Shown here: positions 6,454 through 33,925 of the stretch, in pieces
Position numbering within the stretch: the first letter of the stretch is position 1
Layout: each line of letters begins with the position of its first letter
Origin: Minisyncoccota bacterium
GTDB taxonomy: Bacteria > Patescibacteriota > Minisyncoccia > Phycocordibacterales > SBAW01
Direction: 5' to 3'
DNA length: 64,000 bases
NCBI GenBank assembly: GCA_035546615.1
Contig: DASZWM010000005.1
Coordinates: 1 to 64,000 of the forward strand
Translations under genes and position numbers: made by a program
Notes under the pieces: generated by a model
Told to the model about the DNA's origin: nothing
Database searches by the model: none
What the model saw: the letters and a program-made list of their open reading frames with translations, nothing else

Positions 6454-7344
6454 ATGAACGCGCTTCGGTATCTCCCAAGTACGCAGTTTTTGGTCATTGT
6501 CGGCTCGATTCTTCTCTCCGGCGGACTGGTGCTCGCGGCAGAGCGATTTACGCGCGATCAATATATTCCGGGGAAAATAATGAGCGGTGTGCCCGCCCAG
6601 CCGCCGGCAGACCCGAACTGGCAGAATACGCTCAACTCCATACAGGGCGTGAGCCAGGCGCCGGACCTGACGCCGCCTAATCCGGAAACGGTCGGAAGCC
6701 TGCTGGATGCGGCTAAAAGCTCCAACCTTACGACCACGGTCGGCCGCTCGCTCCTTATAAACATATCCGCCGCCAAGTCGCAGGGGCTCGGAAGCGATAT
6801 TCCGACCCAGGACCAGGTCGTAGCGCAGGCGCGGGCGCAGATAGAAAGCACCCAGAGCGCGCCGCAGTATAAAAACGCCGACCTCGCCCTTTCTGCGCAG
6901 AATGCCGCAGCGCTTAAAGCCTATGGGAACGGCGTTATTGCCGTGCTGGCCGCGCACCCGAAAGCGAATTACGAGGATACGGTGGTGGCGGTAGGGAAGG
7001 CGACCGACTCCAACACGGCATCCGCATTGGCGGCCCTTCCGGGCATACAGGCCGAATACAAGGCCGTCGTACGCGAGCTTCTTGCACTGCCGGTGCCGCC
7101 CAATATGGCGCCGCTTCACCTGAAGGTGGTGAACGACTTCAGCATCCTCGCCGCCTCCTATGACGACATGGCCCAGACGCTGAGCGATCCGCTCCGGGGA
7201 GTGGCGGGGCTCAGCATCTACGACTCGACTACGGATGAAATCGGGCGAGTGTTCATAAATATCGCGCAGACATTCAGCCAAAACGGTATACTTTTCACTG
7301 AAGACGAGCCCGGAAGCTCCTGGAGCGCGCTCGTGCAGTCCTGA
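6454..7344 (+). CDS. Hypothetical membrane-anchored protein (N-terminal TM, extracytoplasmic Ala/Ser-rich domain).
   Basis: 296-aa ORF. TM segment FLVIVGSILLSGGLVLAA. Protein-like composition. Immediately precedes the T4SS-like cluster. Confidence 0.5.
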   Translation: MNALRYLPSTQFLVIVGSILLSGGLVLAAERFTRDQYIPGKIMSGVPAQPPADPNWQNTLNSIQGVSQAPDLTPPNPETVGSLLDAAKSSNLTTTVGRSLLINISAAKSQGLGSDIPTQDQVVAQARAQIESTQSAPQYKNADLALSAQNAAALKAYGNGVIAVLAAHPKANYEDTVVAVGKATDSNTASALAALPGIQAEYKAVVRELLALPVPPNMAPLHLKVVNDFSILAASYDDMAQTLSDPLRGVAGLSIYDSTTDEIGRVFINIAQTFSQNGILFTEDEPGSSWSALVQS

Positions 7345-7349
7345 TCGGC

Positions 7350-9191
7350 ATGACAAAAAGAATCCTGTACATAATTATCGGCTCGGCGCTCATACTCGTG
7401 CTGATTTTGGGCCTGTGGTTCTGGTTCTTTACGCGCGGCGGCTCGCAAGCGGCCAACCCTTCGGGGCTTTTCGGCACGAGCGGGGACGCGACGAACGCCG
7501 GCGCGGGAGCGGGAGATGACCAGGGCAACGGGCAGGCGCCCATCGGCCAGAACGCCTCGCAGGATACGGGGGGAGATATTTCATACATACCCCCGGCTTC
7601 AAACAGCAGCGCCGTATGGCTTGACGGCTCCGGCGCGGGCGGAGGCGGCGGAGGTGGAGGCGGCGGAGGCGGGGGAGGAACAGGCGGAGGAGGGGGCTCC
7701 GGCGGAGGCGGCGGGACGGGCGTGTTCTTTACCCCGACGCCTATCAACTCTTTCAACAGCTTCAACCCGGGCGGCACCGTATATATCGCGGCTCCGCAGG
7801 GCGGGGCGGGCGGCGGCTCCAGCCTTGTTAGCGGGCTTTTGGGCGTGGCCGGCGGCTGCGCGGCGAATTTTTTGCTCAGCAAGGCGGCCGGAGCGGGGGC
7901 CGGGCTTGCGGACCGCGCGCTTGGAATACTAAAAGTACAGGTAACCGACAGCTCAACGCATGACAATCAGGCGGCACAGGCGATAATCGACTGCATCGTG
8001 CGCGGTCTGGCCCGCGCCGCGATACAGCAGATAACCAACGACACCATCAACTGGATAAATTCCGGCTTCGACGGCAAACCGGCGTTCGTGCAGGATTTCA
8101 ACAAGTTCTTCAGCAACGTGGCCGACACCGCCGCAGGCAGCGTCATCCAGGGCGGCGACCTCGCGTTCCTCTGCAGCCCGTTCCAGCTCAAGGTGCGCAT
8201 CGCCATCGCGCAAAGTTACGCGCGCAAGTCCTCAGGGCCGTCATGCACTCTTACGCAAGTAGTGGGCAACGTGGAGAATTTCGTCAACGGCAATTTCGCC
8301 GAGGGCGGTTGGCCCGGGTTCCTGGAGTTCACGACCGAGCCGACCAATAACCCGTTCGGCGCATATATGTACGGCCAGCTCCTGGTCAACGGACGCATCG
8401 CCCAGGATACACGCGACGCCGAGCGCAAGATATCGCCCGGCGGCTTCCTGGCTCAGCAGAAGTGCGACCTAGACGCCAATGGCACCAATATTCAAGAGAC
8501 CTGCAAAGTGGTGACGCCCGGTTCGGTCATAGAGGACGAGCTCAGCCAGGCGACCAAGGCGAACTTGGACGGCCTACAGCTCGCCGACAGCATCGACGAC
8601 ATACTCAACGCTCTCATAAACGCAGTCGTCAACAAAGTGCTCTACCAGGGGCTTGCCAATATCGGCGGCAACGGCAGCGGCGCACTTGAAGGCTCGCAGG
8701 ACACGGTGGCGACCCAGCAGGCAAACGCGCTTCTTACCGAGGTGCAGAACCGCGTTACCGATACGCAAACCTATGCCAGCACCGAGCAGGGAAGCGTTGC
8801 CGACGTGCAGGCGGCGCAGGAGAACCTCAATACCCTTCAAAACTGCTGGCTTGGAAGCAACTCAACCAAGGCAAAAGGCAAGGCGGGCGACGCGGATAGC
8901 AAGATAGCGGACCTTGAGGCTCAGGTAACGCTGCACAATAACCGGATAACGTCGGCAAACAGCGTCATCGTGTCGCTGCAGGACATCCAGACGAAGCTGC
9001 TTAATTCCTCGACCATGTCCGACGTGCAGGCGGTTACGGCCGAGTACAATGCGCTCAAAGCGGGCGGCACCCTTATCACCTCGGCGCAGGTAACTTCGGC
9101 CCAGCAGGATCGCACGACGCTCCAGGCGCAGCTCAGCGGCGTCAATACCAATACCCAGAATGAACTTCAGCAATGTTATGCGGCAAGCTAG
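7350..9191 (+). CDS. Membrane-anchored Gly-rich envelope protein, first gene of the T4SS-like cluster. Has an N-terminal TM, a poly-Gly tract of about 30 residues, and a C-terminal coiled-coil-like Q/T/A-rich region.
   Basis: TM segment ILYIIIGSALILVLILGLWFWFF. The G tract GGGGGGGGGGGGGGTGGGGGSGGGGGTG is encoded by a GGN nucleotide repeat at approx 7630-7727. The C-terminal region has heptad-like periodicity. Its stop overlaps the next gene. Confidence 0.6.
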   Translation: MTKRILYIIIGSALILVLILGLWFWFFTRGGSQAANPSGLFGTSGDATNAGAGAGDDQGNGQAPIGQNASQDTGGDISYIPPASNSSAVWLDGSGAGGGGGGGGGGGGGGTGGGGGSGGGGGTGVFFTPTPINSFNSFNPGGTVYIAAPQGGAGGGSSLVSGLLGVAGGCAANFLLSKAAGAGAGLADRALGILKVQVTDSSTHDNQAAQAIIDCIVRGLARAAIQQITNDTINWINSGFDGKPAFVQDFNKFFSNVADTAAGSVIQGGDLAFLCSPFQLKVRIAIAQSYARKSSGPSCTLTQVVGNVENFVNGNFAEGGWPGFLEFTTEPTNNPFGAYMYGQLLVNGRIAQDTRDAERKISPGGFLAQQKCDLDANGTNIQETCKVVTPGSVIEDELSQATKANLDGLQLADSIDDILNALINAVVNKVLYQGLANIGGNGSGALEGSQDTVATQQANALLTEVQNRVTDTQTYASTEQGSVADVQAAQENLNTLQNCWLGSNSTKAKGKAGDADSKIADLEAQVTLHNNRITSANSVIVSLQDIQTKLLNSSTMSDVQAVTAEYNALKAGGTLITSAQVTSAQQDRTTLQAQLSGVNTNTQNELQQCYAAS

Positions 9192-11328
9192 CGGGGTGAA
9201 AAGCACTCTTCTGCGCCATGGCATGAAAGCCGCGGCGCTTTTGGTCGTGACAGTGCTAGTATTTTCTCCGCTAACTGAGCTTTTCCAGTCTTCTACAGCA
9301 TACGCAGCCGTAGGTGGAAACGCGGGACAACAAGAGGCATCTCGAGCACGCAGTGCTTGCGAAAGCGCAAACGCAGCGAACCACACAAATAATGATTGTA
9401 CTAAAGCAGCTAATGATGCGGCAGCAGCAGTCACTAACGGCGATGGCGGCACGGTATTTAACGCTATCGCTTCCTTTCTTGCGTATCCAATCTACATTTT
9501 CACTGTCGGACTTGGGGGGTTCGCTGCTTCTGTAGGCGGGTATCTTTTTAACGTTTCCATTTACCTTTCGCTCAGCAGCAGCGCATATGGGCTTGACTTT
9601 GTAACTGACGGCTGGGGTGCGGCTCGCGACCTGGCAAACATGTTCTTCATCCTCATCCTCATCTACATCGCTGTTACCGTCATGCTTGAGGCGGAAACGG
9701 GCCACACTATGAACGCGCTGGTACGGGTGCTGTTTATCGCGCTTATCATCAACTTCAGCTTCTTCGCAACGCGCGTAGTTATTGATGCAGGCAACTTTAC
9801 GGCGACCCAATTCTACAATCAGATAAAGGCGGTGGATAAAAATGGGCAACCTGAGGTTATTTTCGGCAGGAATGTAAAGGACCTAAGTGCGAGCGTCATG
9901 GGAGCGGTCGGGGCGCAGGACCTGATAGGCTCAAAGTCATTCGACGACTTCTCGAAAAGAAGCGGCGGATTCGGGGAATTCATAGTGCTTGTGGTCATTT
10001 ACCTTTTTCTCGGCGCGGCGTATTTCGTGCTTGCCGCTACCTTCGTTGCTACAGCAATCAAATTTATCATGCGTATCGCGGTACTATGGCTCACCATCGT
10101 CGCCTCGCCCTTGGCGCTGGTTGCGTATACCGTACCGAGCTTCGAAGGGCAGTTCAAAAGGTGGCAGGAAACTCTCATAAGCCATGCCTTCTTTCCTGTA
10201 GTATTTCTTTTTATATTCTGGCTGATAAGCATTTTTGCCGGCGGCTTAAACCTTTCCGAGTCCTTTACCAGCTACTTAAAGGTGACCGATCCGAACAGCG
10301 CTGCGAATGTTGGCAACGTATTCGGCCTCGTCTCTCTGGTCGGAAGCATTTGCATTAAACTCGGCTTCCTCGTAGCGCTCTTATATCTGGGACTGCGGGC
10401 CGCCGACCAGGTGGGGATTATGGGCGCGCAATGGGCTAATACTATGGGAAACAAGCTTTCTTTCGGCACGATAGGCTTTGCCGGCAGGAATACTGTTGGA
10501 CGCCTCGGGCTTGGGCTTTCGCGCAATGAGGGACTCCGCGATTGGGCATCCAAGAGCGCGGTCGGAAGTGCAGCATTGCGCGGGGCAGGCTTGTTAAGCA
10601 GAGGAAGCTTCGACTTGCGAAGCCTGCCCGGCGCTGGCAAGCTTAAGGGCCAGATAGGGGAGGCGGGTGGCAAGGGCGGTATTGCAAAATGGGAAGAAGA
10701 GCGCGATAAGAAGCGCGAACATAGGATTGAGGAGCTCGGCAAAGCTATAAAGGGCGACATAAAGAATGAGCGCATTGAGCAGGAAAAGTTCATAGCGAAA
10801 TATGAGCGGGATCACGGCGCTGGAAGTTATCAAAAAGACGTAGAGGAAATCTCTAAGAAGATTAGCGGCAGGGAAAAAGAGGCTAAAGCTTTGCGAGAGC
10901 AGGCAAAAACCGCTCCAGAAGCTCTCAGAAACCAGCTTCATAAGGATGCAAAAGTAATTGATGAGGACGTAAAGAACATTAAAAAAGATCTGACGGAAAT
11001 GACAGAGGCTGGCAAGAGTACGGTAAAACATACTAACCACGAGCGTTCAGAAGTACTTGCGGCTCGATTGTCCAACAAATGGAATGCGTTCCTTACCACT
11101 CCCTCCAGAGGAACTCTCAAGGGCATCGCGCACCTGACACACCACGAAAGCAAAGAGGAGAAATTGGCGAAGGCCGCAAAAGACTTTGCGAAGGACGATG
11201 AAGGCGGTGGGCACACTCCTCCGGCAGCTACTCCTCCCCCCGTAACACCTGCGCCTGATTCCGCGCCCCCAAGCGGCCACGCTCCTAAACCTGATGCTCC
11301 AGCAGGTGAACACCGCGCAGACCACTAA
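9178..11328 (+). CDS. VirB6/TrbL-like polytopic membrane protein. It has at least 6 TM helices, a charged Lys/Glu-rich cytoplasmic segment and a Pro-rich tail.
   Basis: Signal-like N-terminus followed by multiple long hydrophobic helices (e.g. FFILILIYIAVTVML, VLFIALIINFSFF, FIVLVVIYLFLGAAYFVLAATFVA, VLWLTIVASPLALVAY). The KWEEERDKKREHRIEELGK charged block and its position in the cluster are typical of TrbL/VirB6-family topology. Start taken at the internal ATG 9178; the longest ORF starts at 9160. Confidence 0.5.
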   Translation: MRQASGVKSTLLRHGMKAAALLVVTVLVFSPLTELFQSSTAYAAVGGNAGQQEASRARSACESANAANHTNNDCTKAANDAAAAVTNGDGGTVFNAIASFLAYPIYIFTVGLGGFAASVGGYLFNVSIYLSLSSSAYGLDFVTDGWGAARDLANMFFILILIYIAVTVMLEAETGHTMNALVRVLFIALIINFSFFATRVVIDAGNFTATQFYNQIKAVDKNGQPEVIFGRNVKDLSASVMGAVGAQDLIGSKSFDDFSKRSGGFGEFIVLVVIYLFLGAAYFVLAATFVATAIKFIMRIAVLWLTIVASPLALVAYTVPSFEGQFKRWQETLISHAFFPVVFLFIFWLISIFAGGLNLSESFTSYLKVTDPNSAANVGNVFGLVSLVGSICIKLGFLVALLYLGLRAADQVGIMGAQWANTMGNKLSFGTIGFAGRNTVGRLGLGLSRNEGLRDWASKSAVGSAALRGAGLLSRGSFDLRSLPGAGKLKGQIGEAGGKGGIAKWEEERDKKREHRIEELGKAIKGDIKNERIEQEKFIAKYERDHGAGSYQKDVEEISKKISGREKEAKALREQAKTAPEALRNQLHKDAKVIDEDVKNIKKDLTEMTEAGKSTVKHTNHERSEVLAARLSNKWNAFLTTPSRGTLKGIAHLTHHESKEEKLAKAAKDFAKDDEGGGHTPPAATPPPVTPAPDSAPPSGHAPKPDAPAGEHRADH

Positions 11329-12141: not shown

Positions 12142-12612
12142 ATGTTATACTGGATAGCGATGCGCTATCAGGTCCCTCAATTCATAGAAATAGAAGACAA
12201 GATATTCGGACCGCTTACCTTAAAGCAGTTCATCTATCTGGCCGGAGGCGGCGGCTTGTGCCTTATCTTCTTTTCGCTCTTGCCCCTCTACCTTACCTTC
12301 ATACTATCCATCCCGGTCATCGTATTCGCCGCCGCGCTTGCCTTCTACCAGGTAAACGGCCGGCCGTTCATCGTGGTGCTCGAGCACGCCTTCGGCTACA
12401 TGTTCGGCCATAAGCTCTACCTCTGGAAGCAGCGGGAGGCAAAGACTCAGGCCGCCGCCGCGGAAGCGGCCGCCGCAAATGCCGCGCCCGCGCTTGGCGT
12501 GCCAAAGCTCTCGGAGAGCAGGCTGAAGGACCTTGCATGGTCGCTCAATATAAAGGACCGGGCCAAGATGGGGGTTTCCGATACCGGCGCCCGGACAGGA
12601 TTCGAAATCTGA
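12142..12612 (+). CDS. VirB3/PrgI-like small 2-TM protein.
   Basis: 156 aa. Two adjacent TM helices (FIYLAGGGGLCLIFFSLLPLYLTFILSIPVIVFAAALAF). Lies immediately upstream of the VirB4 ATPase, as VirB3/PrgI does in known T4SS. Confidence 0.5.
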   Translation: MLYWIAMRYQVPQFIEIEDKIFGPLTLKQFIYLAGGGGLCLIFFSLLPLYLTFILSIPVIVFAAALAFYQVNGRPFIVVLEHAFGYMFGHKLYLWKQREAKTQAAAAEAAAANAAPALGVPKLSESRLKDLAWSLNIKDRAKMGVSDTGARTGFEI

Positions 12613-12613
12613 T

Positions 12614-13282
12614 ATGGCTGAAGCACAAGTAAAAGCGCAGGCGACCCAGGAATTCGTACCCATCAAGGAGGTGCGCGACGGCATCGTCATACTCAAGGAC
12701 GGCAGCCTCCGCTCGCTCCTTATGGCCTCCTCCATAAACCTGGCGCTTAAAAGCAATGACGAGCAGGAAGCGACCATCGGCCAGTTCCAGAACTTCCTCA
12801 ACTCGCTGGAGTTCTCCGTGCAATTCTTCATACAGAGCCGCGACTTGGACGTCCGGCCTTACATCGCCCTCCTTGAGGAGCGCTACGCGCTCGAGCTCGA
12901 CGACCTTATGAAGATTCAGATCCGCGAATACATCGCCTTCATCAAGGACTTTACCGAGCGCGCGAACATCATGACGAAGAACTTTTTCATCGTGGTGCCG
13001 TATGACCCGGCTATCATCTCCCGGGGCGGCGGGGCGGCGATGATAGGGAACCTATTCCCGACCGGAGGGGGCGCGTCCGCGGCGGCGCTTACCGACGCGC
13101 AGTTCGAGCAGTACCGCACCCAGCTGGAGCAGCGCATCAGCGTTATAGAGCAGGGGCTCGTGCGCACCGGCGTGCGCGTCGTAAAGCTCGGGACCGAGGA
13201 GGTAATAGAGCTCTTCTACAAGCTCTTCAACCCCGGCGAGCTCGAAAAGCCTTTACAGGTAACGCAAATTGCCAAGGCATAA
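12614..13282 (+). CDS. N-terminal segment of a VirB4/TrbE-family ATPase, encoded as a separate ORF (222 aa).
   Basis: FVPIKEVRDGIVILKDGSLRSLLMASSINLALKSNDEQ matches the characteristic start of the VirB4 N-terminal domain (…YLPYIGHLSDHIVLLEDGSIMSIARIDGVAFELEE in A. tumefaciens VirB4). The stop is at 13280-13282, 7 nt before the ATG of the ATPase body, in a different frame. Confidence 0.6.
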   Translation: MAEAQVKAQATQEFVPIKEVRDGIVILKDGSLRSLLMASSINLALKSNDEQEATIGQFQNFLNSLEFSVQFFIQSRDLDVRPYIALLEERYALELDDLMKIQIREYIAFIKDFTERANIMTKNFFIVVPYDPAIISRGGGAAMIGNLFPTGGGASAAALTDAQFEQYRTQLEQRISVIEQGLVRTGVRVVKLGTEEVIELFYKLFNPGELEKPLQVTQIAKA

Positions 13283-13289
13283 TATACGT

Positions 13290-15107
13290 ATGGCATTCCT
13301 CGACTTCTTAAAATCAAAACCCAGCAACGTCTCGGCTCCGATGGCGCCCATACTTCCGGAAGCCATCTACAAGCAGGGAATACTCGAGCTCCAGGACGTC
13401 ATCGCCCCTTCGGCACTGAAGATAACGCCGCGCGAAATAAACCTCGGCGACAAGATAGCGCGCACGTTCTTCGTGATGTCCTACCCGCGCGTCCTCACCG
13501 ACTCGTGGTTCGCGCCGGTCATCAACCTCGACCGCGTGCTCGACGTTTCCATATTCATACACCCCATAGACTCCGCCGACATCCTTAAAAAGTTCCAAAA
13601 GAAGGTGGCCGAGGTACAAAGCCAGATAATGACCCGCGAGCAGAAGGGGATGGTGCGCGACCCGATGCTCGACACCGCCTACCGCGACCTTGAGGACCTG
13701 CGCGACCAGCTCCAGCAGGCGCAGGAGCGCATTTTTGACGTAGGCGTCTACATCACCATCTACGGCAAGACCGTGGAGGAACTCGATAAGACCGAAAGCG
13801 AAATAAAGTCCATGCTCGAATCGCGCCTCGTATACGTGAAGCCGGCGCTCTTCCAGCAGGAACAGGGCTTCAAGTCGGTGCTGCCGCTGGGTCATGACGT
13901 GCTCGGCGTGAACTCCAAGCTCAACTCTTCTCCCTTATCGTCCATCTTCCCGTTCGTGTCGTTCGACCTCACGTCCGACCGCGGCATACTCTACGGCGTT
14001 AACCGCCACAACGCCTCGCTCGTGCTGTTTGACCGCTTCTCTCTTGAGAACTACAACTCCGTTATCTTCGCGAAGTCCGGCTCCGGCAAGTCGTACGCCA
14101 CCAAGCTCGAAATATTGCGTACCCTCATGTTCGATACCGAGGTCATCGTCATCGACCCGGAACGCGAATATGAATTCCTCTCGCAAGCGGTCGGCGGGCG
14201 CTACTTCAACATCTCTCTTAACTCCGAGCACCACATCAACCCGTTCGACCTGGCCCCGCCCAGGGAAGACGAGTCACCGGCCGATATTCTGCGCTCCAAC
14301 ATCGTAGCGCTTGTGGGCATGTTCCGCATCATGCTCGGCGGCCTCAGCCCCGAGGAGGACGCCATTATGGACAAGGCGATAACGGAGACGTACGCGCTCA
14401 AGGATATTACGGTTGACTCCGACTTCAGCCAGATAGAGCCGCCGCTTCTGTCGGACTTCGAGCTGGTACTCGCCGGGATGGAGGGCTCTGAGTCGCTCGT
14501 ACAGCGCCTGTCCAAGTACACCAAGGGCACGTGGTCAGGATTCATCAACCAGGCGACCAACGTGGACATCAACAAGAAGTTCGTCGTGTTCTCCGTGCGC
14601 GACATGGAAGACGACCTCAAGCCTGTTGCAATGTACCTCATTACGCACTACATCTGGAACGCGGTGCGCAAGAATCTCAAGAAGCGCCTGCTCGTCATCG
14701 ACGAGGCATGGTGGATGATGAAGTCGGAGGATACCGCGAGCTTTCTGTACTCCATGGCGAAGCGCGGCCGAAAATATTACCTGGGCCTTGCAACCATTAC
14801 GCAGGACGTGGACGACTTCCTGAAGTCTCCGTACGGGCTGCCTATGATAACCAACTCCTCGCTTCAGCTGCTTCTCAAGCAATCGCCCACGACCATCGAC
14901 AACCTGCAGAAGACCTTCAACCTATCCGACGAGGAGAAATTCCTGCTGCTGGAGTCCGATGTAGGGGAGGGAATATTCTTCGCCGGCATGAAGCACGTAG
15001 CCATCAAAGTCATCGCTTCCTATACAGAAGACCAGATAATCACTTCCGACCCGAGCCAGGTGCTTGCCTTGCGCAAGCAGAAGGCCGACGCCCAATCACA
15101 GACATGA
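13290..15107 (+). CDS. virB4: VirB4/TraC/TrbE-family T4SS ATPase (central and C-terminal ATPase domains).
   Basis: Walker A FAKSGSGKSY, Walker B LLVIDEAWWMM and the TITQDVDDF motif. The N-terminal part (REINLGDKIARTFFVMSYPRVLTDSWFAPVINLDRVLDVSIFIHP) aligns with the VirB4 middle domain. Start taken at ATG 13290; the ORF track starts at TTG 13269. Confidence 0.85.
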   Translation: MAFLDFLKSKPSNVSAPMAPILPEAIYKQGILELQDVIAPSALKITPREINLGDKIARTFFVMSYPRVLTDSWFAPVINLDRVLDVSIFIHPIDSADILKKFQKKVAEVQSQIMTREQKGMVRDPMLDTAYRDLEDLRDQLQQAQERIFDVGVYITIYGKTVEELDKTESEIKSMLESRLVYVKPALFQQEQGFKSVLPLGHDVLGVNSKLNSSPLSSIFPFVSFDLTSDRGILYGVNRHNASLVLFDRFSLENYNSVIFAKSGSGKSYATKLEILRTLMFDTEVIVIDPEREYEFLSQAVGGRYFNISLNSEHHINPFDLAPPREDESPADILRSNIVALVGMFRIMLGGLSPEEDAIMDKAITETYALKDITVDSDFSQIEPPLLSDFELVLAGMEGSESLVQRLSKYTKGTWSGFINQATNVDINKKFVVFSVRDMEDDLKPVAMYLITHYIWNAVRKNLKKRLLVIDEAWWMMKSEDTASFLYSMAKRGRKYYLGLATITQDVDDFLKSPYGLPMITNSSLQLLLKQSPTTIDNLQKTFNLSDEEKFLLLESDVGEGIFFAGMKHVAIKVIASYTEDQIITSDPSQVLALRKQKADAQSQT

Positions 15108-16882
15108 TCCGGGGAATGCTGCTTATAACGCTGGCGCTTTTCATAGACATGCTACAGGCGGGCATTTCGCTTGCCATTGCATTGCTTGCGGCAGTGCCCG
15201 GCACGGCGATAGGCGCGGCGGGGGGGGCGGTGGCGGGCGCGTCGCTGTGCAGCTACGTTGGGCTGGGCGCGATCTCAGGATGGTGCTCGGCGATAGGGGG
15301 GTTTGCGGTCGGCTTCTTCGCCACGCCGCTCAACGCCTTGGCTGTTGTCACGGAGCCTGTCGGCATAGCCGTAGGGTTCGCCATAAACATGTGCCTCAGC
15401 ATCTGCCTCGGCGCCTTCCTGCTCATGCTCATGGCTTTTTTCCTTAAGAAGATATATGTAAAAAATCTCTTCTTCGGACTCGGAGAAATGATACCGGGCA
15501 TAAACAATATCCCGTTCTGGACCGCATTCGTCGTGGTATCCTTGCTTAAAAAGAGCGCGGAGGACGGCACGGGCGCGCTCTCGGGCATGGCGGCCGTAGC
15601 CACGACGGCCATGTCGCCCGGAAGCGCATTGGGCAACGCAGCCGGCGGAATTATGAGAGCAAAAGAAAAGACAACTGAGATAGCGGATCGGACAAAAGCT
15701 TTTTCGAGCCCGCTCATGCTCCAGCCGCTTAAAGGCTACAAACAACAGCAGGACAACTTGGGAGACCATCTGAATCAGGAGCAAATAAATCCCGGTAGTA
15801 CGCCCCGGGAAAGTGCATCCGCACAGGCGGCACGCAATATTTTCAATGATATCCGGCCTATCCGGAAAGCGGCGGCTGTTCTTCTCGCTTTTGCACTTTT
15901 CGGCGCAGGCGTGCAGGCGGCATACGCGCAGGCAGTAGACCCCTTGCGATTCGTTATCACGCCTGAAATCCCCACCCCGGGAGCGCAGGTAGCCATAGAA
16001 GCACAGGGCGTCGGGAACTTCCTCGGCGACGCGACCTTCACCTGGCAGCAGGACGGTAAGACCGTATTGACCGGAATGGGTGAGCGCAGGCTTACTTTCA
16101 CTGTAGGGAATGTCGGCGCCGCGACCCGCATACACGTGACAATTCAGTCTCCGACCAACGGTACGATAGACCGCGACTTCACGCTGGTGCCGAGCGTTGT
16201 GCATCTTTTGTGGGAGGCGGACACGTCCGTTCCGCCTCTCTATCGCGGTAAGGCGCTCTACAGCGCCGGCTCGACGTTCAGGGTGATAGCGCTGCCGCAG
16301 GTAGTCGCGGGCGGAGCAACCATCACTTACAACAACCTTTCATTCCAGTGGAGCCTCAACGGCGAGCCGGCGGTGAATCAATCGGGGAAGGGGCGCTCAT
16401 CGGCGGCATTCCAAGGAAGCCAACTGCGTGCCTCGGAAAACGTCAGCGTCGATGTGTATCTTGGAGCCCAGGCCGTGGGCCGTGCGAGCATTACTATCCC
16501 GGCAGTGGACCCGGAGCTGTCGCTCTATATACAGGACCCTCTGCGCGGCACGCTGTATGATCAGGCGATGCCCGCTACTATCTCTCTTCTGAATACAGAA
16601 GTGACCCTCAAGGCAGAGCCGTTCTATTTTTCAAACGACAGCATCAGAAACGGAGCCGCTGCGTATACTTGGACCTTAAATGGAACACCTGCTACCGGCC
16701 CTGATTCGGCGCGGGGCATATTGACATTGCGTCAGACCGGAAACGGCGGCGGGGAAGGGCGGCTCGGAGTAGAGCTTCAGAATACCGACCCGACCAGGTT
16801 CGTGCAGGCGGCCCGCGCTGCGCTGCGAATCCTCTTTAACGGTACGGCAAATTCCAATACCACATCGTCATTCGGCGTATGA
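15104..16882 (+). CDS. Polytopic membrane protein with a large C-terminal extracytoplasmic beta-rich domain (T4SS-like cluster, function unknown).
   Basis: ATG at 15104 overlaps the VirB4 stop (ATGA). The ORF-track start at 14531 is out-of-frame read-through of virB4. It has 4-5 N-terminal TM helices and an additional hydrophobic segment AAAVLLAFALFGAGVQAAYA. This is followed by a Thr/Ser/Gly-rich region of about 330 aa with beta-strand character. Confidence 0.55.
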   Translation: MIRGMLLITLALFIDMLQAGISLAIALLAAVPGTAIGAAGGAVAGASLCSYVGLGAISGWCSAIGGFAVGFFATPLNALAVVTEPVGIAVGFAINMCLSICLGAFLLMLMAFFLKKIYVKNLFFGLGEMIPGINNIPFWTAFVVVSLLKKSAEDGTGALSGMAAVATTAMSPGSALGNAAGGIMRAKEKTTEIADRTKAFSSPLMLQPLKGYKQQQDNLGDHLNQEQINPGSTPRESASAQAARNIFNDIRPIRKAAAVLLAFALFGAGVQAAYAQAVDPLRFVITPEIPTPGAQVAIEAQGVGNFLGDATFTWQQDGKTVLTGMGERRLTFTVGNVGAATRIHVTIQSPTNGTIDRDFTLVPSVVHLLWEADTSVPPLYRGKALYSAGSTFRVIALPQVVAGGATITYNNLSFQWSLNGEPAVNQSGKGRSSAAFQGSQLRASENVSVDVYLGAQAVGRASITIPAVDPELSLYIQDPLRGTLYDQAMPATISLLNTEVTLKAEPFYFSNDSIRNGAAAYTWTLNGTPATGPDSARGILTLRQTGNGGGEGRLGVELQNTDPTRFVQAARAALRILFNGTANSNTTSSFGV

Positions 16883-17529
16883 AAAAGACCTTCTATCTCT
16901 ACATATCGCTCATAGGGTTTGTGCTGGCGCTTTCGTTTGCCGGGAGCGTTTTGGCGCAGAACAAGCCGGGGTTTTCGTGTACGGGTCCCGGCGGTACAAA
17001 CTGCCAGTATGTTCCGCTCGAACCGCTATCAAACATGGACGAAGGCGGCAACACGACCATGGCGACGTTCATCAACTCGCTCTTCAAGATACTATTCTCC
17101 CTCAGCGCGCTTTTTGCCGTAGCGATGCTTACGATGGGAGGGATTGAATACATGATTTCGGACGTGGCGGAGCGCAAGAACGAAGGTATACGGCGTGCGA
17201 CGGCAGCCCTGTACGGCATTCTGATACTCGCCGGTTCGTATCTACTCCTGTATACGATAAATCCGCAGCTGCTGAACTTTGATCTTACATTCAAGCAGAT
17301 AGGGAGCACGGGAGCAGGGGCGCAAACAGGACAATCCGGGGTCGGGAATGCTCCTCAATCTGAGACTGAAATCACAGGACCTCAAGGAGGAGTAATATAC
17401 GATTCCGACTCGCTTTCTGTTCAGGCCAAGGCGCTCAATCAAATCAACACGTACTGCAAGGGAAAGGTCGAAAAGACCCGAGGAACAGACTCGATTGGTG
17501 ATTATACAGAGTACTCATGCGTAAAATAA
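16879..17529 (+). CDS. Pilin-like protein (VirB2/TrbC-like topology): signal peptide plus two central TM helices.
   Basis: ATGA overlap with the upstream gene. MKKTFYLYISLIGFVLALSFAGSVLAQ is a signal peptide. The mature protein has two hydrophobic helices (LFKILFSLSALFAVAMLTMGG; AALYGILILAGSYLLLYTI) separated by a short charged loop, as in T4SS pilins. The functional call is topology-based only. Confidence 0.35.
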   Translation: MKKTFYLYISLIGFVLALSFAGSVLAQNKPGFSCTGPGGTNCQYVPLEPLSNMDEGGNTTMATFINSLFKILFSLSALFAVAMLTMGGIEYMISDVAERKNEGIRRATAALYGILILAGSYLLLYTINPQLLNFDLTFKQIGSTGAGAQTGQSGVGNAPQSETEITGPQGGVIYDSDSLSVQAKALNQINTYCKGKVEKTRGTDSIGDYTEYSCVK

Positions 17530-18780: not shown

Positions 18781-19242
18781 TTACGCCTTCGAGCCTTCCT
18801 TGTACTTAAGGACGATGTGGCGGAATTTTCCTTCCCCCTGGGACTCCGTCTTTATTTCCGGATCTTCCGAGAACAGCTCGTGCACCACCAGGCGCTCGTA
18901 CGCGCTCATGGGGCCGAGCTCTACGTCATGCTTGAAAAGCCGCGCGCGCTGGGCCAGCATAGAGGCATTGGCGCGCACCGCATCCATCTTTTCCTCGTAA
19001 AAGCGGTTGACGTCGATCAAGAAGCTCGCGGCCTCCTCACCGTATTTCGCCTCCACCAGGCGCTTCGCCACGGTATTGAGCGCGCGAAGGTGGTCGCCAT
19101 CCGGCCCGATGAGCTCCTTGGCGTCGGGAGAGGCAATAGCCACGACCGTGCGGTGGCCGGTCGATATGTCGAGACTGGTGACCTCTGCGCCGAGCAAGCC
19201 GATGAAGGAAGTCATAAAATCTTTCAGAGCGGCGGCATCCAT
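18781..19242 (-). CDS. khpB: KhpB/Jag-type RNA-binding protein (KH + R3H domains).
   Basis: Lies downstream of yidC as in the conserved rpmH-rnpA-yidC-jag operon. R3H-like C-terminus (…LGPMSAYERLVVHELFSEDPEIKTESQGEG…). Start taken at internal ATG 19242. Confidence 0.75.
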   Translation of the reverse strand: MDAAALKDFMTSFIGLLGAEVTSLDISTGHRTVVAIASPDAKELIGPDGDHLRALNTVAKRLVEAKYGEEAASFLIDVNRFYEEKMDAVRANASMLAQRARLFKHDVELGPMSAYERLVVHELFSEDPEIKTESQGEGKFRHIVLKYKEGSKA

Positions 19243-19304
19243 AAAGACACAATACCCCAGCGGGCGGGGCAGACGCAACTTTGAGAGTTTTTACGGCCTC
19301 CGGA

Positions 19305-20024
19305 TTAGTCTTTTCGGCTCAGCTGGCGCTTGATGACCAGCTCCTGGCCAAGCGACACAAGGTTGCCGGCGGCAAAATAGAGCCCAACGGCCGCCGGAAG
19401 CGAGTAGGAGACAACGCCCATCAGGACCGGCAGGAAGTACAGCATCATCTGGCGCTGCATGCGGTGGGCCGCCTGGCGCTCTTTAGGCAGGTTTGCGGCC
19501 CCGGGGGCGGTGCGCGCCATGGAAAGGTGCGCCACGCCGTACTGGAGGCCCGCCACGACGATGCTGAGCGCGATATTATGCGGCTGCATAAGCTCGAGAA
19601 GCCCAAAAAAGCTTATATCCACGACCGCCGGCACGTGCACGAAGGGGTAGAGGAGCTCGCTTGCCACGTGCGGCAACCCTTCGCGGAACAGGGCGAAGTA
19701 GAGGGCTAAAAATACCGGTATCTGGACAAGAAGCGCCAGGAACCCGGCGAACGGGTGGATATCCTTTTCCTTATAGAGCGCCATGGTGGCGCGGGCGCGG
19801 GCCTCCGAATCGTCCTTGTATTTCTTATTTATCTCGTCTATTTCCCCCTGCGCAGCCTGCATGCCCATTTGGGTCTTTATGGAGGCGGCAAAAGCCGGGT
19901 AGAACACGATGCGGGTTATAAGTGTCAGGGCGATGATGGCAAGGCCGACATCGCCCCCCGGCATGACGCCGATGAGGTAGATAAACCCGTTATAGAGGGG
20001 CTTTATGAGCAGTGTTTCAAACAT
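19305..20024 (-). CDS. yidC: Membrane protein insertase YidC/Oxa1 family (short, monoderm-type).
   Basis: Five TM helices. Conserved YidC segments (LLIKPLYNGFIYL; PFAGFLALLVQIPVFLALYFAL; MMLYFLPVLMGVVSYSLPAAVGLYF). Operon position matches. Confidence 0.85.
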   Translation of the reverse strand: MFETLLIKPLYNGFIYLIGVMPGGDVGLAIIALTLITRIVFYPAFAASIKTQMGMQAAQGEIDEINKKYKDDSEARARATMALYKEKDIHPFAGFLALLVQIPVFLALYFALFREGLPHVASELLYPFVHVPAVVDISFFGLLELMQPHNIALSIVVAGLQYGVAHLSMARTAPGAANLPKERQAAHRMQRQMMLYFLPVLMGVVSYSLPAAVGLYFAAGNLVSLGQELVIKRQLSRKD

Positions 20025-20331
20025 GTAATAGCTTTTTTAGGTCCTCTGCGAAGGCGGCTGCGGCGTTTTGAGGGGGCGCGGACAGTATAAACAGTACCAT
20101 GTGGCCGCTCTGGGGCAGAACAGCCCCCTGAAGAGCCCGATAGACCGCCCGCCTCAGGCTGTTGCGCCTGACCGCGCTTTTGGCAACCTTCTTGGAAACG
20201 ACGACCGCGCAGGCAAACGGACCTTGTTTTTCAATGTTTTTTGAGGAAAGCACCTCTCCCCGGCGGCCCCGCCCCCGGGCGATGACCTCCCGCACTTCGG
20301 CTGCGCTCAGGCGCCGGCGCTTGGGGAGCAT
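20017..20331 (-). CDS. rnpA: Ribonuclease P protein component.
   Basis: Basic 104-aa protein (LPKRRRLSAAEVREV…SKKVAKSAVRRNSLRR…). Located between rpmH and yidC. Confidence 0.85.
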   Translation of the reverse strand: MLPKRRRLSAAEVREVIARGRGRRGEVLSSKNIEKQGPFACAVVVSKKVAKSAVRRNSLRRAVYRALQGAVLPQSGHMVLFILSAPPQNAAAAFAEDLKKLLHV

Positions 20332-20334
20332 GGC

Positions 20335-20469
20335 TTAGACGCTCTTGCGCGCGCGGCCCTTGCGGGAGCGGCGCTGAAGGGTCTTGCGGCCCCCCGGGGA
20401 AGCGCTGCGCTTAAGGAACCCGTGGCTGCGGGCGCGTTTGCGCTTTTTTGGCTGGTAGGTAACTGACAT
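20335..20469 (-). CDS. rpmH: 50S ribosomal protein L34.
   Basis: Manual translation gives [44 protein letters not shown] (44 aa), the L34 signature. It was not in the ORF track because it is under 60 aa. Confidence 0.85.
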
Positions 20470-20553
20470 CCGTCAAATATAGCGTATCCCCAGTTTCTCC
20501 ACAACTTGTGCACAAAAAACGGTTTTTGACCGCCGTCGCCCTGAAGCGTATCC

Positions 20554-21909
20554 TTGGAGTACTTCGCGCCTCACATGACCACCACCAAAGAAATCTGGGA
20601 AAACGCGCTGACCGAGCTCGAGCTTGTCATTTCACGCCCCAATTTCAATACGTGGTTCAAGGATACTCACCTTATCCGTGTGGAGGAGGGAGCGGCCTAT
20701 CTCGGCGTCCCGTCCCAGTTCGCCCGCGACTGGCTTTCGACCAAATTCCATAAGGATATCCTCCATTCACTCCGGGGATTGTCGGAAAACATCCGCACGG
20801 TCGAATACGTGATATCGCGCGGCTCCAAAAAGCCGGTCGAGGAGGTTGCCACGGCCGCGCCGACGGAGCTTCCTCTCGAATCCGTGCACCAGAAGACAAA
20901 CCTCAATCCGCGCTTCACCCTTTCATCATTCATCGTGGGGCCGTTCAACGAGCTGGCGCACGCGGCGGCGCAGGCGGTCATCCGCAAGCCCGGCATCGCG
21001 TATAACCCGCTCCTGGTATACGGGCCGACCGGCTTGGGCAAGACCCACCTCATACAGGCGATAGGGAACCACTTTCGCGTGAATGCTCCCGATCGCAAAG
21101 TGCAGTACATGACGTCCGAGAAGTTCGCCATGGATTACGTCGCGTCGCTTTCCTCCGGAAAAGTGCAATTCTTCAAGGAAAAGTACCGCCAGTACGACGT
21201 GCTCATCATGGACGACGTGCAGTTCCTGGCAAAAATGGAAAAGACGAAGGAGGAGTTCTTTCACCTTTTCAACTTTTTGCACGACAACAACAAGCAATTG
21301 GTGTTCTCGAGCGATCAGCACCCCAACATGATACAAAACCTCGAAGACAGGCTCAAATCCAGGCTCAATGCGGGTATGATCGTGTCGGTCACCCCACCGG
21401 ACCATGAATCCAGGCTCGCCATCGTGCAGGCAAAGGCGGCACAGCATAATTTTATCGTCGCCAATGACGTGATGGAGTACTTGGCTTCGACCGTAGAGGG
21501 CAATGTGCGCGAGCTTGAAGGGGCGCTCAACACGCTTCTTATACAGTTCGAGATGCGCTCCAAGCCCATAACTTTGGCCGACGCCAAGCTGCTCCTGCGC
21601 GGGGCTGGGAATGCCACCAAAAAGGCGGTTTCGGTACAAGAGGTAGTTAAGACCATCGCCAACTTCTACGGCATCGAGGAGGCGAGCATTTATGAAAAGA
21701 CGCGCCGGAAGGAAGTTGTGCGGCCTAGGCAGGTCATCATGTTCCTTCTGCGCGAGGACTTCCATATATCCTTCCCGACAATAGGGGATAAAATGGGCGG
21801 CCGGGACCATACGACCGTCATACACTCGTGCGACAAGATAAAGAACGACCTCCACACCGATTCCGTATTGGCGCAGGAAATACACCAGATCCGGTTCATG
21901 TTGAAATGA
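20554..21909 (+). CDS. dnaA: Chromosomal replication initiator protein DnaA.
   Basis: AAA+ Walker A GPTGLGKTHL, Walker B LIMDDVQF, sensor motifs, and a C-terminal DnaA-box-binding helix-turn-helix (…FPTIGDKMGGRDHTTVIH…). An alternative start is MTTTKEIW at 20575. Confidence 0.95.
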   Translation: MEYFAPHMTTTKEIWENALTELELVISRPNFNTWFKDTHLIRVEEGAAYLGVPSQFARDWLSTKFHKDILHSLRGLSENIRTVEYVISRGSKKPVEEVATAAPTELPLESVHQKTNLNPRFTLSSFIVGPFNELAHAAAQAVIRKPGIAYNPLLVYGPTGLGKTHLIQAIGNHFRVNAPDRKVQYMTSEKFAMDYVASLSSGKVQFFKEKYRQYDVLIMDDVQFLAKMEKTKEEFFHLFNFLHDNNKQLVFSSDQHPNMIQNLEDRLKSRLNAGMIVSVTPPDHESRLAIVQAKAAQHNFIVANDVMEYLASTVEGNVRELEGALNTLLIQFEMRSKPITLADAKLLLRGAGNATKKAVSVQEVVKTIANFYGIEEASIYEKTRRKEVVRPRQVIMFLLREDFHISFPTIGDKMGGRDHTTVIHSCDKIKNDLHTDSVLAQEIHQIRFMLK

Positions 21910-22117
21910 TGTGGATTAGTACTGCGACTATTGTGGAAAAACTACCGGAAAAAAGTACAGCTATGAAAAATAAAATTACTACCAACACCAAGGCAACCAC
22001 TATACAGGAGTTGTTCTTTTTCAAAACCCTCTTTACAGCCTTATATGGCAACAGAATTACAGCTTATCCACGCAGTCCACAGGTGTAATAGTAATAGTAG
22101 TTTTTAAATAGAAAGAT
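21910..22117. promoter_or_regulatory. Candidate oriC (dnaA-dnaN intergenic region) with DnaA-box-like 9-mers and AT-rich tracts.
   Basis: Three 9-mers each have one mismatch to TTATCCACA or its complement: tgtggatta at 21910-21918, tgtggaaaa at 21932-21940 and ttatccacg at 22063-22071. AT-rich runs are at 21955-21985 and 22085-22115. Confidence 0.5.
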
Positions 22118-23215
22118 ATGAAATTCGAATCCACAACTGAACAGCTCCTCTCGGCGGTTTCGCTTGCAAGCAGGTTCGTGGAAAAGCGCGCGAATCTTCC
22201 GGTGCTTGCAAGTATTCTGCTTATCGCCGAAAAAGGCCGCCTGATACTGCGCGCTACCAATCTTGAATGCGGGGTTGAAATAACCGCGCAGGCCAAAGTA
22301 CTTGAAGAGGGTATCGCGGCCATTCCGGGGTCAGTATTGGCCGGGTTCCTTGGGAATGCCCGCGGCAAGACTGTATCAGCTCAGCTTTCCGGAGGCACGC
22401 TCAAGATGGAGACGGAACGCGCTTCAGCGTCTATAAAAACCGTGCCGCATGAGGACTTTCCGATATTGCCGCAGGTAGCGGCTACTACGTCGCTTACGGT
22501 TAAAGCGAGCGACCTTTCCAAGCTTATCCGCTCGGTAGCGTATTGCGCTTCGACTTCCGCGATAAAGCCGGAGCTTCAGAGCGTGCTTATCTACGGAGAG
22601 GGCGGCAAGCTTGTGGCTGCTGCGACCGACTCATTCCGCTTAGCCGAAAAGAACGTATCGTTGCGCTCGCAAGGCTCGGTACCGCAGCTCCTGGTACCCG
22701 CGCGCAACGCAGTCGAGCTTAATCGCATACTTGAAGCCGCCTCGGGCGATGTAGAGATCTATTACAACGAGCACCAGATATCGGCCCATATCGGCTCTGT
22801 GTACTACACCAGCCGCCTCATAGACGGCTCGTTCCCGAACTACCGCCAGATAGTGCCCAAGGAGTTCGCCACGGAAGCCGTCGTGCTGCGCGAAGATATG
22901 TCAGGCGCGCTCAAATCACTTTCCCTGTTCGCGGACAAGCTGGCGCAGGTTTCACTCGCTGTAGAGCCTTCCAAGAAGGCTGTGCTGCTTACCTCGCGCA
23001 ATCCGGACGTAGGCGAGCAGGTGTCCACCTTGCGCGCCACGATATCTGGCGAAGAGGCAGCTATGAACTTCAACGGCCGCTACCTGGCAGACAGCCTCCA
23101 AGCAATAACAGGGGAGAGCGTCAGGCTTTCTTCAAACGGCCCGGGCAAGCCGCTGTTGGTCAAAGACGCCGGAGACGATTCCTTCTTCTACCTGGCAATG
23201 CCGATGAACCGCTAA
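22118..23215 (+). CDS. dnaN: DNA polymerase III beta sliding clamp.
   Basis: 365 aa with three-domain clamp architecture. Conserved N-terminus (…LLSAVSLASRFVEKRANLPVLASILL…) and C-terminal LAMPMN-type motif (YLAMPMNR). Confidence 0.9.
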   Translation: MKFESTTEQLLSAVSLASRFVEKRANLPVLASILLIAEKGRLILRATNLECGVEITAQAKVLEEGIAAIPGSVLAGFLGNARGKTVSAQLSGGTLKMETERASASIKTVPHEDFPILPQVAATTSLTVKASDLSKLIRSVAYCASTSAIKPELQSVLIYGEGGKLVAAATDSFRLAEKNVSLRSQGSVPQLLVPARNAVELNRILEAASGDVEIYYNEHQISAHIGSVYYTSRLIDGSFPNYRQIVPKEFATEAVVLREDMSGALKSLSLFADKLAQVSLAVEPSKKAVLLTSRNPDVGEQVSTLRATISGEEAAMNFNGRYLADSLQAITGESVRLSSNGPGKPLLVKDAGDDSFFYLAMPMNR

Positions 23216-29272: not shown

Positions 29273-30409
29273 ATGAAAATAGGAGAATTCATTCAGCAAC
29301 CCCAAGGTTTTAAAACCTTTGTGCCCGATAAGTTTCCTCACAAGGATTTATCAAGCGTTATATTAAATCCGCAAACCTCTCAGCTTCACGCCCGGGCCGC
29401 TTTTTTGCTTGGGAAGTTGGATGGCATCACTCAACTTCTGCCAGATTTGGATTTTTTCATCTTCATGTATGTAAGAAAAGAAGCGGCGTTCTCAAGCGAA
29501 ATAGAGGGCACAAGAGCGACAATGATTGACGCTATCAGAGCGGAAGTAGAACTTACTCGCGATCTGCCTAATGACGTGGAGAACATTCTAAAATACATTG
29601 ACGCAATGAACTATGGTCTTAAGAGACTCGAGAACTTTCCACTCTCTCTGCGCCTCATTCGAGAGGTACATAAGACCCTTCTTGAACAGACGCAAGGCGG
29701 TATAGGCAAAACACCAGGAGAGTTTAGAACTTCTCAAAATTGGATCGGGGGTGCCTCGCCCGCAACGGCACGCTTCGTACCACCCCCTGTCGCAGCTATG
29801 CATGACGCCCTAGGGGACTTAGAGAAGTTTCTACATAATAGTGCGGATATTCCACCTCTTATCAAAACCGCTCTTGCACACTCTCAGTTCGAAACAATAC
29901 ATCCTTTTCTGGATGGTAATGGCCGCACAGGTAGACTTCTCGTCACCTTTTACCTCTGCCAACAGGAAGTACTTGAACGTCCGGTATTGTATCTCTCTGC
30001 CTATTTTAAGAAGCATCGAGACACCTATTTTGATCTGCTTAACGGCTACCATAACAAAGGCGAAATAGTCCCGTGGCTGAACTTCTTTTTAGAAGGAGTG
30101 GCTGAAGTGGCAGAGGCAGCAATTAAGGTTTCTCAAGCCATTAATATCTTACGTGAGGAAGACCAAATGAAAATTCAGGCTTTTGGTAGGTCGGCTGGCG
30201 TAGCGATGAAAGTGCTAAGAGCGCTTTACAAACTTCCTATTGTAGACGTACGCAAAATTCAGGAGTTGACAGGCTATTCCAGAACAGCCGCGAACAACTT
30301 TGTGAAAAAGCTTGTGGATCTGGAGATTCTTGTTCAGCGTAATAAAAAAGCTACCTATGGGCGACAATTCGAATACGCACGCTATTTAAAACTCTTTGCA
30401 AAAGAGTAA
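29273..30409 (+). CDS. fic: Fic family protein (putative AMPylase) with an N-terminal inhibitory motif and a C-terminal winged-helix-like domain, on a low-GC gene.
   Basis: Fic active-site motif HPFLDGNGRTGR. SxxxEG inhibitory motif (AAFSSEIEGT) upstream in the same polypeptide (class II arrangement). GC is clearly lower than the flanks. Inserted between yebC and ruvB. Confidence 0.85.
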   Translation: MKIGEFIQQPQGFKTFVPDKFPHKDLSSVILNPQTSQLHARAAFLLGKLDGITQLLPDLDFFIFMYVRKEAAFSSEIEGTRATMIDAIRAEVELTRDLPNDVENILKYIDAMNYGLKRLENFPLSLRLIREVHKTLLEQTQGGIGKTPGEFRTSQNWIGGASPATARFVPPPVAAMHDALGDLEKFLHNSADIPPLIKTALAHSQFETIHPFLDGNGRTGRLLVTFYLCQQEVLERPVLYLSAYFKKHRDTYFDLLNGYHNKGEIVPWLNFFLEGVAEVAEAAIKVSQAINILREEDQMKIQAFGRSAGVAMKVLRALYKLPIVDVRKIQELTGYSRTAANNFVKKLVDLEILVQRNKKATYGRQFEYARYLKLFAKE

Positions 30410-33462: not shown

Positions 33463-33484
33463 GCATATATTGTACACTAGCTCT

Positions 33485-33925
33485 ATGGAGAGAATTACGC
33501 TCAGCGGTCTGCCAGAGACGGCAAAAACGGTGCTCGAGAAGATCCCGGAGAAAACGGACGGCGCCGCGGTGCTGGCGCTCTCGGGCGACCTCGGAGCAGG
33601 GAAGACCACTTTCGTGCAGGCGCTTGCCCGCGAGCTTGGCATACAGGAGACCGTGCAGAGTCCGACGTATGTGTTGATGAAGTCGTACCCCATAGCCTAC
33701 AAACAGTTCACGACCCTTATACATATAGATGCGTATCGTCTGGAGAAGCCTGAGGAGTTCGCGGCGCTGAAGCCCGATATATTCTTGGCCGACCCAACGA
33801 ACCTGGTATGCATCGAGTGGCCGGAGAAGGCAGGTACGGCGCTTGCGAAGCCTGACCTGCTGCTGAAGTTCTCTTCCGAAGGCGCACAAGAAGGGGAGCG
33901 GTACATTTCGATCGAACAGGAGTAA
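33485..33925 (+). CDS. tsaE: tRNA threonylcarbamoyladenosine biosynthesis protein TsaE (YjeE).
   Basis: P-loop LSGDLGAGKTTFVQALAREL followed by SPTY(V/T)L, characteristic of TsaE. 146 aa. Confidence 0.75.
   Translation: MERITLSGLPETAKTVLEKIPEKTDGAAVLALSGDLGAGKTTFVQALARELGIQETVQSPTYVLMKSYPIAYKQFTTLIHIDAYRLEKPEEFAALKPDIFLADPTNLVCIEWPEKAGTALAKPDLLLKFSSEGAQEGERYISIEQE

Follow-up and report, generated by a model that had tools for sequence, protein, structure and literature searches.

Does a VirB4 ATPase distributed over two consecutive open reading frames (ORFs), the first closed by a stop codon and the second opened a few nucleotides further in another frame, represent a damaged gene, a gene restored by recoding, or two genes? 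The question is raised by a locus in contig DASZWM010000005.1 (GCA_035546615.1) of a member of Paceibacterota (Patescibacteria, candidate phyla radiation, CPR), of which positions 1 to 64,000 were analysed and are referred to as a whole as the window; the upstream piece is designated ORF1 and the downstream piece ORF2 (Table 1). The description of their limits, lengths and junction in the initial annotation was borne out by the sequence: ORF1, which contains ...VPIKEVRDGIVILKDGSLRSL..., ends as ...QIAKA* with TAA at 13280-13282, and ATG GCA TTC at 13290 opens ORF2 in the +1 frame relative to ORF1, the lengths of 222 and 605 amino acids (aa) summing to 827 aa. Out of the three explanations left side by side there, namely a genuine pair of genes for two polypeptides, a frameshift requiring recoding, and an inactivating or assembly error, only the first is retained here, the others being at odds with the split in 79 of 79 relatives, the variable spacing and frame, and purifying selection. 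With a probability estimated at about 0.88, ORF1 and ORF2 are a pair of genuine genes, each translated on its own, within a chromosomal type IV secretion system (T4SS) operon of the monoderm (MPF_FATA-like) type, the TrsD-like piece corresponding exactly to the sub-domain that a TrsE-type VirB4 lacks, and their separation is an ancient one, with the breakpoint of TrsD and TrsE of plasmid pSK41.

Relatives of the locus were represented by 80 species-level GTDB loci, 79 of them informative. In each of the 79 the first piece terminates by a stop codon and the second begins from ATG, and one uninterrupted ORF, regarded by the initial annotation as the sign of a sequencing error, is present in none. 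The comparison of split and fused arrangements recommended there supports a genuine split at the protein level as well, 149 of the 150 best representatives of 50%-identity clusters being stand-alone proteins. Homologues of ORF1 number more than 7,700, the best 120 all having 207-235 aa, and a protein of 222 aa identical to ORF1 is deposited from a metagenome-assembled genome (MAG) of Candidatus Paceibacterota (P0001). Across the related loci the length of the first piece is confined to 210-228 aa, and the second has a median of 607 aa. What lies between them is, on the contrary, far from constant: the spacer ranges from -14 to 442 nucleotides (nt), with 1-6 nt in 55 of the 79 loci, and relative frames 0, 1 and 2 all occur. 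In two separate lineages virB4 is set apart from the TrsD-like gene by an inserted complete gene of the 23S_rRNA_IVP family (four-helix bundle; L052, 4315-4756, and L060, 6634-7054; Pfam E 4e-30 and 6e-27).

That programmed +1 frameshifting, or bypass of the stop codon, at 13280-13290 yields a single VirB4 polypeptide is suggested by the local geometry only, that is by stop and start codons 7 nt apart and the location of ORF2 in the +1 frame. With junctions varying among the 79 relatives in all three frames and from slight overlap to the inclusion of a whole gene, a conserved slippery context is therefore impossible, and ORF2 always possesses its own ATG followed by a conserved N-terminal motif; such recoding can hardly be given credence. 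The motif in question is an octapeptide, M-[AG]-[LI]-[LF]-D-F-[LF]-K, which opens the ORF2 homologue in 79 of 79 relatives and is followed by a variable linker of 10-15 aa and then by conserved PILPEQIYKQGVLELQD. Because all these relatives begin with the octapeptide at the equivalent point, ATG 13290 is taken as the true start of ORF2. The alternative TTG start at 13269, which comes from a mechanical list of ORFs and overlaps ORF1, was rejected, ATG 13290 and its motif being the conserved elements. Codon reassignment as a cause of the split was likewise discarded, TAA being a stop codon in genetic codes 11 and 25.

In favour of a fault in sequencing or assembly, or of a recent mutation turning virB4 into a pseudogene, there is nothing to cite beyond the a priori possibility inherent in a MAG, while the same split recurs in thousands of independent assemblies produced by different pipelines, lengths are tightly kept, and neither Walker A nor Walker B is damaged. 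The sole related locus with a "truncated" ORF2 (L050) contains a run of 10 N at ~6950-6975, a scaffold gap or masking, after which the frame resumes. Comparison of the window genes with 25 loci gave ratios of nonsynonymous to synonymous differences (pN/pS) of 0.17 for ORF1 (pN 0.13) and 0.11 for ORF2 (pN 0.08), which, with pS of ~0.7 and synonymous sites saturated, are an imprecise indication resembling an upper bound. Strong purifying selection acts on ORF1 and ORF2 alike. Taken together, the split in 79 of 79 loci, variability of spacing and frame, and purifying selection exclude assembly error and pseudogenisation, for which we see practically no probability left, as well as programmed frameshifting.

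The packing of the two genes is in line with that of their neighbourhood. The gene of the PrgI family ends 1 nt before the start of ORF1, ORF2 shares the ATGA tetranucleotide with the next gene, and the pilin gene overlaps the latter by 4 nt, so that the ORF1/ORF2 junction is packed like every other junction of the operon and the frame change carries no significance. Motifs of Shine-Dalgarno (SD) type were found at -20 to -3 before the ORF1 homologue in 7 of the 79 loci and before the ORF2 homologue in one. Because such motifs are almost absent and the distance from stop to start is mostly 1-6 nt, TAATATG being the commonest junction, the sequences suggest SD-independent initiation or coupling of termination and reinitiation in this lineage. 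Somewhat longer spacers of 60-98 nt in four loci (L010, 6614-6673; L040, 5463-5539; L066, 6634-6716; L073, 6631-6728) contain short palindromic or repeated motifs, represented in L010 by repeated CTAG-rich units and in L073 by inverted ACGTAGTACGTAG repeats.

The identity of the downstream piece is straightforward. ORF2 matches the NCBIfam model NF045971 (VirB4-like, CD1110 family) with 388.8 bits against a cutoff of 325, and its Pfam matches are P-loop_TraG (91.7 bits against 25.8), AAA_10, DUF87 and TraC_F_IV (PF11130). Residues 230-586 correspond to the C-terminal domain of VirB4 in PDB entry 4AG5 (E 3e-41), and residues 112-552 align with residues 286-735 of TrwK (E 5e-9). Judging by sequence, ORF2 is a short VirB4 of the TrsE type, because it starts at position 185 of the CD1110 model and its residue 112 equates to residue 286 of TrwK. 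It does not comprise the complete N-terminal region of VirB4 in one polypeptide, the first sub-domain being encoded by ORF1.

The similarity of the 222-aa ORF to VirB4 N-terminal models, on which the initial annotation had made its reading depend, is present: ORF1 aligns with positions 2-115 of the CD1110 VirB4 model and positions 100-233 of VirB4_plasma. It scores similarly with these NCBIfam models and with the stand-alone TrsD/TraD family (NF041427; E 1e-9, 38.5 bits, residues 8-128 on profile positions 12-142 of 201). All ORF1 homologues carry PF26593 ("TraC-like") as the precomputed Pfam assignment; for their placement coordinates on PF11130 (TraC/VirB4 N-terminal) were used instead, where they span, below threshold, positions ~19-183 of 375. 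The surroundings of ORF1 are those of TrsD, i.e. it is a stand-alone protein of ~200-230 aa with a VirB3-like gene upstream and a short VirB4/DUF87 ATPase directly downstream, and this holds for the window, the 79 loci and pSK41. In 73 of the 79 loci the ORF1 homologue is preceded by a PrgI homologue at a distance of no more than 200 nt. Modelled by AlphaFold2 as a single chain from an alignment of 98 sequences, ORF1 is predicted to fold as an autonomous domain, with a predicted local distance difference test (pLDDT) value of 86 and a predicted template modelling score (pTM) of 0.76, the model being weak only in the termini and the loop 131-160. This Gly/Ala-rich loop stays outside the alignments with VirB4 and TrsD, the NCBIfam matches ending at residue 128 and hhalign placing a gap there. 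Foldseek comparison of the model with the PDB returned VirB4/TrwK chains of the R388 T4SS as all of the best 14 matches (probability 1.0, query-normalised TM-score 0.5-0.58), the following ones falling under a probability of 0.2. A search of the PDB by sequence, either with the single ORF1 sequence or with the family profile, gave nothing meaningful, and matches came from the structure-based search only.

The two pieces supplement each other. The CD1110 model is divided between ORF1 (positions 2-115) and ORF2 (positions 185-734 of 752) in a complementary and collinear manner. On the PF11130 profile ORF2 takes positions 280-374, downstream of the segment taken by ORF1-type proteins; therefore the break lies inside the classical N-terminal region of VirB4, between two sub-domains. 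The allocation, in the initial annotation, of the extreme N-terminal part of VirB4 to ORF1 and of the rest to ORF2 is upheld by the coordinates on hidden Markov models, by the predicted fold matching TrwK/VirB4, and by the sole fusion among the 150 cluster representatives. This protein, P0206, is a natural TrsD-VirB4 fusion of 797 aa, encoded on a single contig of a Patescibacteria MAG (GCA_964615945.1; locus L083, 544-2937), where its gene follows PrgI near rnpA-yidC-dnaA-dnaN. ORF1 residues 7-212 map on residues 4-214 of P0206 and ORF2 residues 24-598 on residues 217-795, leaving a fusion junction of 2 residues, so that the order of the two genes is exactly that of the fusion and each supplies what the other lacks. 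In comparison with P0206, ORF1 is longer by ~10 residues at its C-terminus and ORF2 by ~23 at its N-terminus, among them the octapeptide; the MA(L/F)LDFLK motif is absent from the fusion, the alignment starting there at ORF2 residue 24. Full-length VirB4 proteins (TrwK of R388, the CD1110 family from integrative and conjugative elements of Firmicutes, and P0206) thus contain the same domains in the same order in one polypeptide, whereas two are encoded here.

Descent from the VirB4 N-terminus does not by itself oblige the TrsD-like protein to serve the ATPase, and it might have become independent, for instance as a regulator, chaperone or assembly factor. TrsD homologues of Gracilibacteria mostly do not adjoin virB4 (PMC12102498), in the archaeon Haloterrigena a plasmid carries the split with an opposite-strand gene between the two pieces, and many ORF1 representatives, several of the stand-alone ones among the 150 included, have long disordered C-terminal tails with up to ~220 extra residues, as expected from diversification of independent proteins. 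Yet the tight adjacency of the genes in 78 of the 79 loci, the order PrgI, TrsD, VirB4 collinear with the order of domains in VirB3-VirB4 fusions, the existence of a natural fusion with a junction of only 2 residues, and the exact coincidence of the part missing from ORF2 with that supplied by ORF1 speak for a common function, and we consider independence of the TrsD-like protein from the ATPase improbable.

The reading of ORF1 and ORF2 as complementary parts of one ATPase has its own weak points, which should be counted against it. The score of 38.5 bits remains well under the curated cutoff of 200 for NF041427, making ORF1 a remote homologue of TrsD and not a member of the family by threshold. 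The Foldseek matches to TrwK come without a residue range in TrwK, the N-terminal placement being derived from profile coordinates and the fused relative P0206. Comparison of the ORF1 family profile with the sequence of R388 TrwK by hhalign was not significant (probability 1%); its lone local match, between ORF1 residues 115-144 and TrwK residues 112-138, is consistent in position and counts as no evidence. No TrsD has an experimentally assigned function (PMC12102498). Finally, physical association of the two chains, its stoichiometry and the bridging role of ORF1 outlined below are what we infer, the structure being predicted for single chains.

The closest precedent for two complementary genes is found in the staphylococcal plasmids pSK41 and pGO1 (MPF_FATA, pGO1 subclass), where, as in the window, a gene for a small VirB3-like protein is followed by one for a protein of ~225 aa and one for a DUF87/VirB4 ATPase of ~600-670 aa (TrsD and TrsE, also TraD and TraE). 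In pSK41 TrsC precedes TrsD (227 aa), separated by a gap of 14 nt, compared with 7 nt here, from TrsE (672 aa, DUF87). ORF2 residues 36-574 align with residues 36-617 of TrsE, with identity of only 24%; both ATPases begin at the same point, and the breakpoint is common. Correspondence between TrsD of pSK41 and the ORF1 family profile is remote (hhalign probability 80%, E 1.4e-5, 175 columns, 7-202 against 32-217); a homologue from a Geobacillus plasmid aligns strongly with the same profile (hhalign probability 99.7%, E 2e-26). The succession of PrgI, a protein of 257-328 aa and a DUF87 ATPase is also found on plasmids of Geobacillus, B. thuringiensis and C. sporogenes. The split is thus not peculiar to the genome studied and represents the known architecture of TrsD plus TrsE-type VirB4. 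The present locus is chromosomal and situated next to dnaA, whereas pSK41, a conjugative plasmid, encodes a relaxase and a coupling protein of the VirD4 type.

Within Patescibacteria TrsD is the commonest T4SS component, 1,664 of its 2,272 copies adjoining virB4 (Quinonero-Coronel et al. 2025, PMC12102498). The same source counts TrsD among the essential genes of Ca. Southlakia epibionticum ML1, the one strain tested, for the epibiotic growth of which the T4SS cluster is required (Wang et al. 2023, PMC10633639). Such clusters usually have no relaxase and are often found near dnaA (PMC12102498). The window, with PrgI, the TrsD-like protein, VirB4 and T4SS_pilin gathered within 12142-17529 near dnaA, displays the composition of a Patescibacteria MPF_FATA-like cluster. 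It shares with the described systems (PMC12102498; ML1, PMC10633639) the same parts, i.e. PrgI/VirB3, TrsD adjoining VirB4 and a VirB2-like pilin, and the chromosomal position near dnaA; there is no substantive difference, and the window adds one further instance from Paceibacterota. No relaxase or coupling protein (T4CP) domain was detected among the 28 window ORFs scanned, which are part of those in the window.

The gene order PrgI, TrsD, VirB4 mirrors the order of domains in VirB3-VirB4 fusions of some conjugative systems, which demonstrate that the modules VirB3, VirB4 N-terminus and ATPase can be separated and joined in the linear order observed here. The direction is opposite, joining in the one case and separation in the other, PrgI being encoded by a gene of its own in the window; no VirB3-VirB4 fusions were found in Patescibacteria (PMC12102498). 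As a separate observation, the NCBIfam model NF042935 (actinobacterial SCO6880 family, 477 positions) matched weakly, far below its cutoff, the PrgI-like protein with its positions 12-80 and ORF2 residues 85-201 with its positions 362-476, a hint that in Actinobacteria a VirB3-like module and the N-terminal one of VirB4 may be joined at another breakpoint.

Functionally, the two polypeptides would be made from one tightly packed transcript and would associate non-covalently, ORF1 presumably taking the place held in fused VirB4 by the first ~175-215 residues. In this position it could connect the ATPase hexamer with the membrane anchor PrgI/VirB3, whose gene directly precedes its own. The free N-terminal octapeptide of the ATPase piece might then serve for docking of either the TrsD-like protein or PrgI, rendering membrane attachment of the ATPase reversible and regulatable, so that the separation would be exploited and not neutral; we find this improbable. 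If true, it would provide these epibionts with a regulatable attachment of the ATPase in an essential relaxase-less T4SS.

The two-gene architecture of VirB4 is already known and ordinary, and no new principle follows from the locus. The addition made here is modest and consists of the breakpoint matching that of TrsE, the rare natural fusion, the predicted TrwK-like fold of ORF1 and the conserved free octapeptide of the ATPase piece. For annotation this means that VirB4 of Patescibacteria, or of the MPF_FATA type from Firmicutes and archaea, is not to be flagged as frameshifted or truncated, and the upstream "hypothetical protein" of ~220 aa is to be named the TrsD-like N-terminal module of VirB4. 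A two-chain ATPase matters for structural and biochemical reconstitution too, where both chains are therefore to be co-expressed, probably together with PrgI.

Table 1. Features of the virB4 locus and of the adjoining genes, in window coordinates.
Feature	Coordinates	Strand	Characteristics
PrgI-family (VirB3-like) small membrane protein	12142..12612	+	156 aa; Pfam PF12666 PrgI, E 2.9e-11, 44.2 bits against a cutoff of 27
ORF1	12614..13282	+	222 aa; TrsD-like, free-standing; first sub-domain of the VirB4 N-terminal region
Gly/Ala-rich loop of ORF1, residues ~131-160	13004..13093	+	Low predicted order, pLDDT 57-71
Intergenic spacer, ORF1 stop to ORF2 start	13283..13289	+	7 nt, TATACGT; no SD-like motif
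ORF2	13290..15107	+	605 aa; TrsE-type VirB4 ATPase without the first ~185 model positions of full-length VirB4
N-terminal octapeptide of ORF2, MAFLDFLK	13290..13313	+	Family motif M-[AG]-[LI]-[LF]-D-F-[LF]-K from position-wise counts in 79 loci
Walker A, AKSGSGKS	14070..14093	+	ORF2 residues 261-268; intact, read from translation and alignment
Walker B, LLVIDE	14688..14705	+	ORF2 residues 467-472; intact, read from translation and alignment
Predicted membrane protein	15104..16882	+	592 aa; ATG overlaps the ORF2 stop (ATGA, 15104-15107); same operon
T4SS pilin (VirB2-like)	16879..17529	+	216 aa; Pfam PF18895 T4SS_pilin, E 2.9e-8, 34.1 bits against a cutoff of 26.6
R3H/Jag	18781-19278	-	Beside the T4SS operon
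YidC	19305-20024	-	Beside the T4SS operon
DnaA	20554-21909		Beside the T4SS operon
DnaN	22118-23215		Beside the T4SS operon

Downstream, the T4SS operon directly adjoins the set of replication-origin genes (18781-23215), the same neighbourhood being found in L083, the locus of P0206. The predicted membrane protein encoded after ORF2 was not attributed to any family in the Pfam scan. Upstream of the operon and in the same orientation two further genes are located, neither product of which has a Pfam match: a protein of 613 aa (7350-9191) with an N-terminal transmembrane segment and a poly-Gly run (~30 residues, nearly all G), and a polytopic membrane protein of 722 aa (9160-11328) with a charged Pro-rich C-terminal tail, possibly VirB6-like. 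The remaining window is of housekeeping character (PBP1, aminoacyl-tRNA synthetase, PolA, Mur ligase, PilB-like T2SSE ATPase, G6PD); the PilB-like ATPase, with its MshEN domain (31780-33693), belongs to the type IV pilus. A Fic/DOC protein is encoded at 29273-30409 and a protein of 1,278 aa with a Gly_rich_2 domain at 45716-49552.

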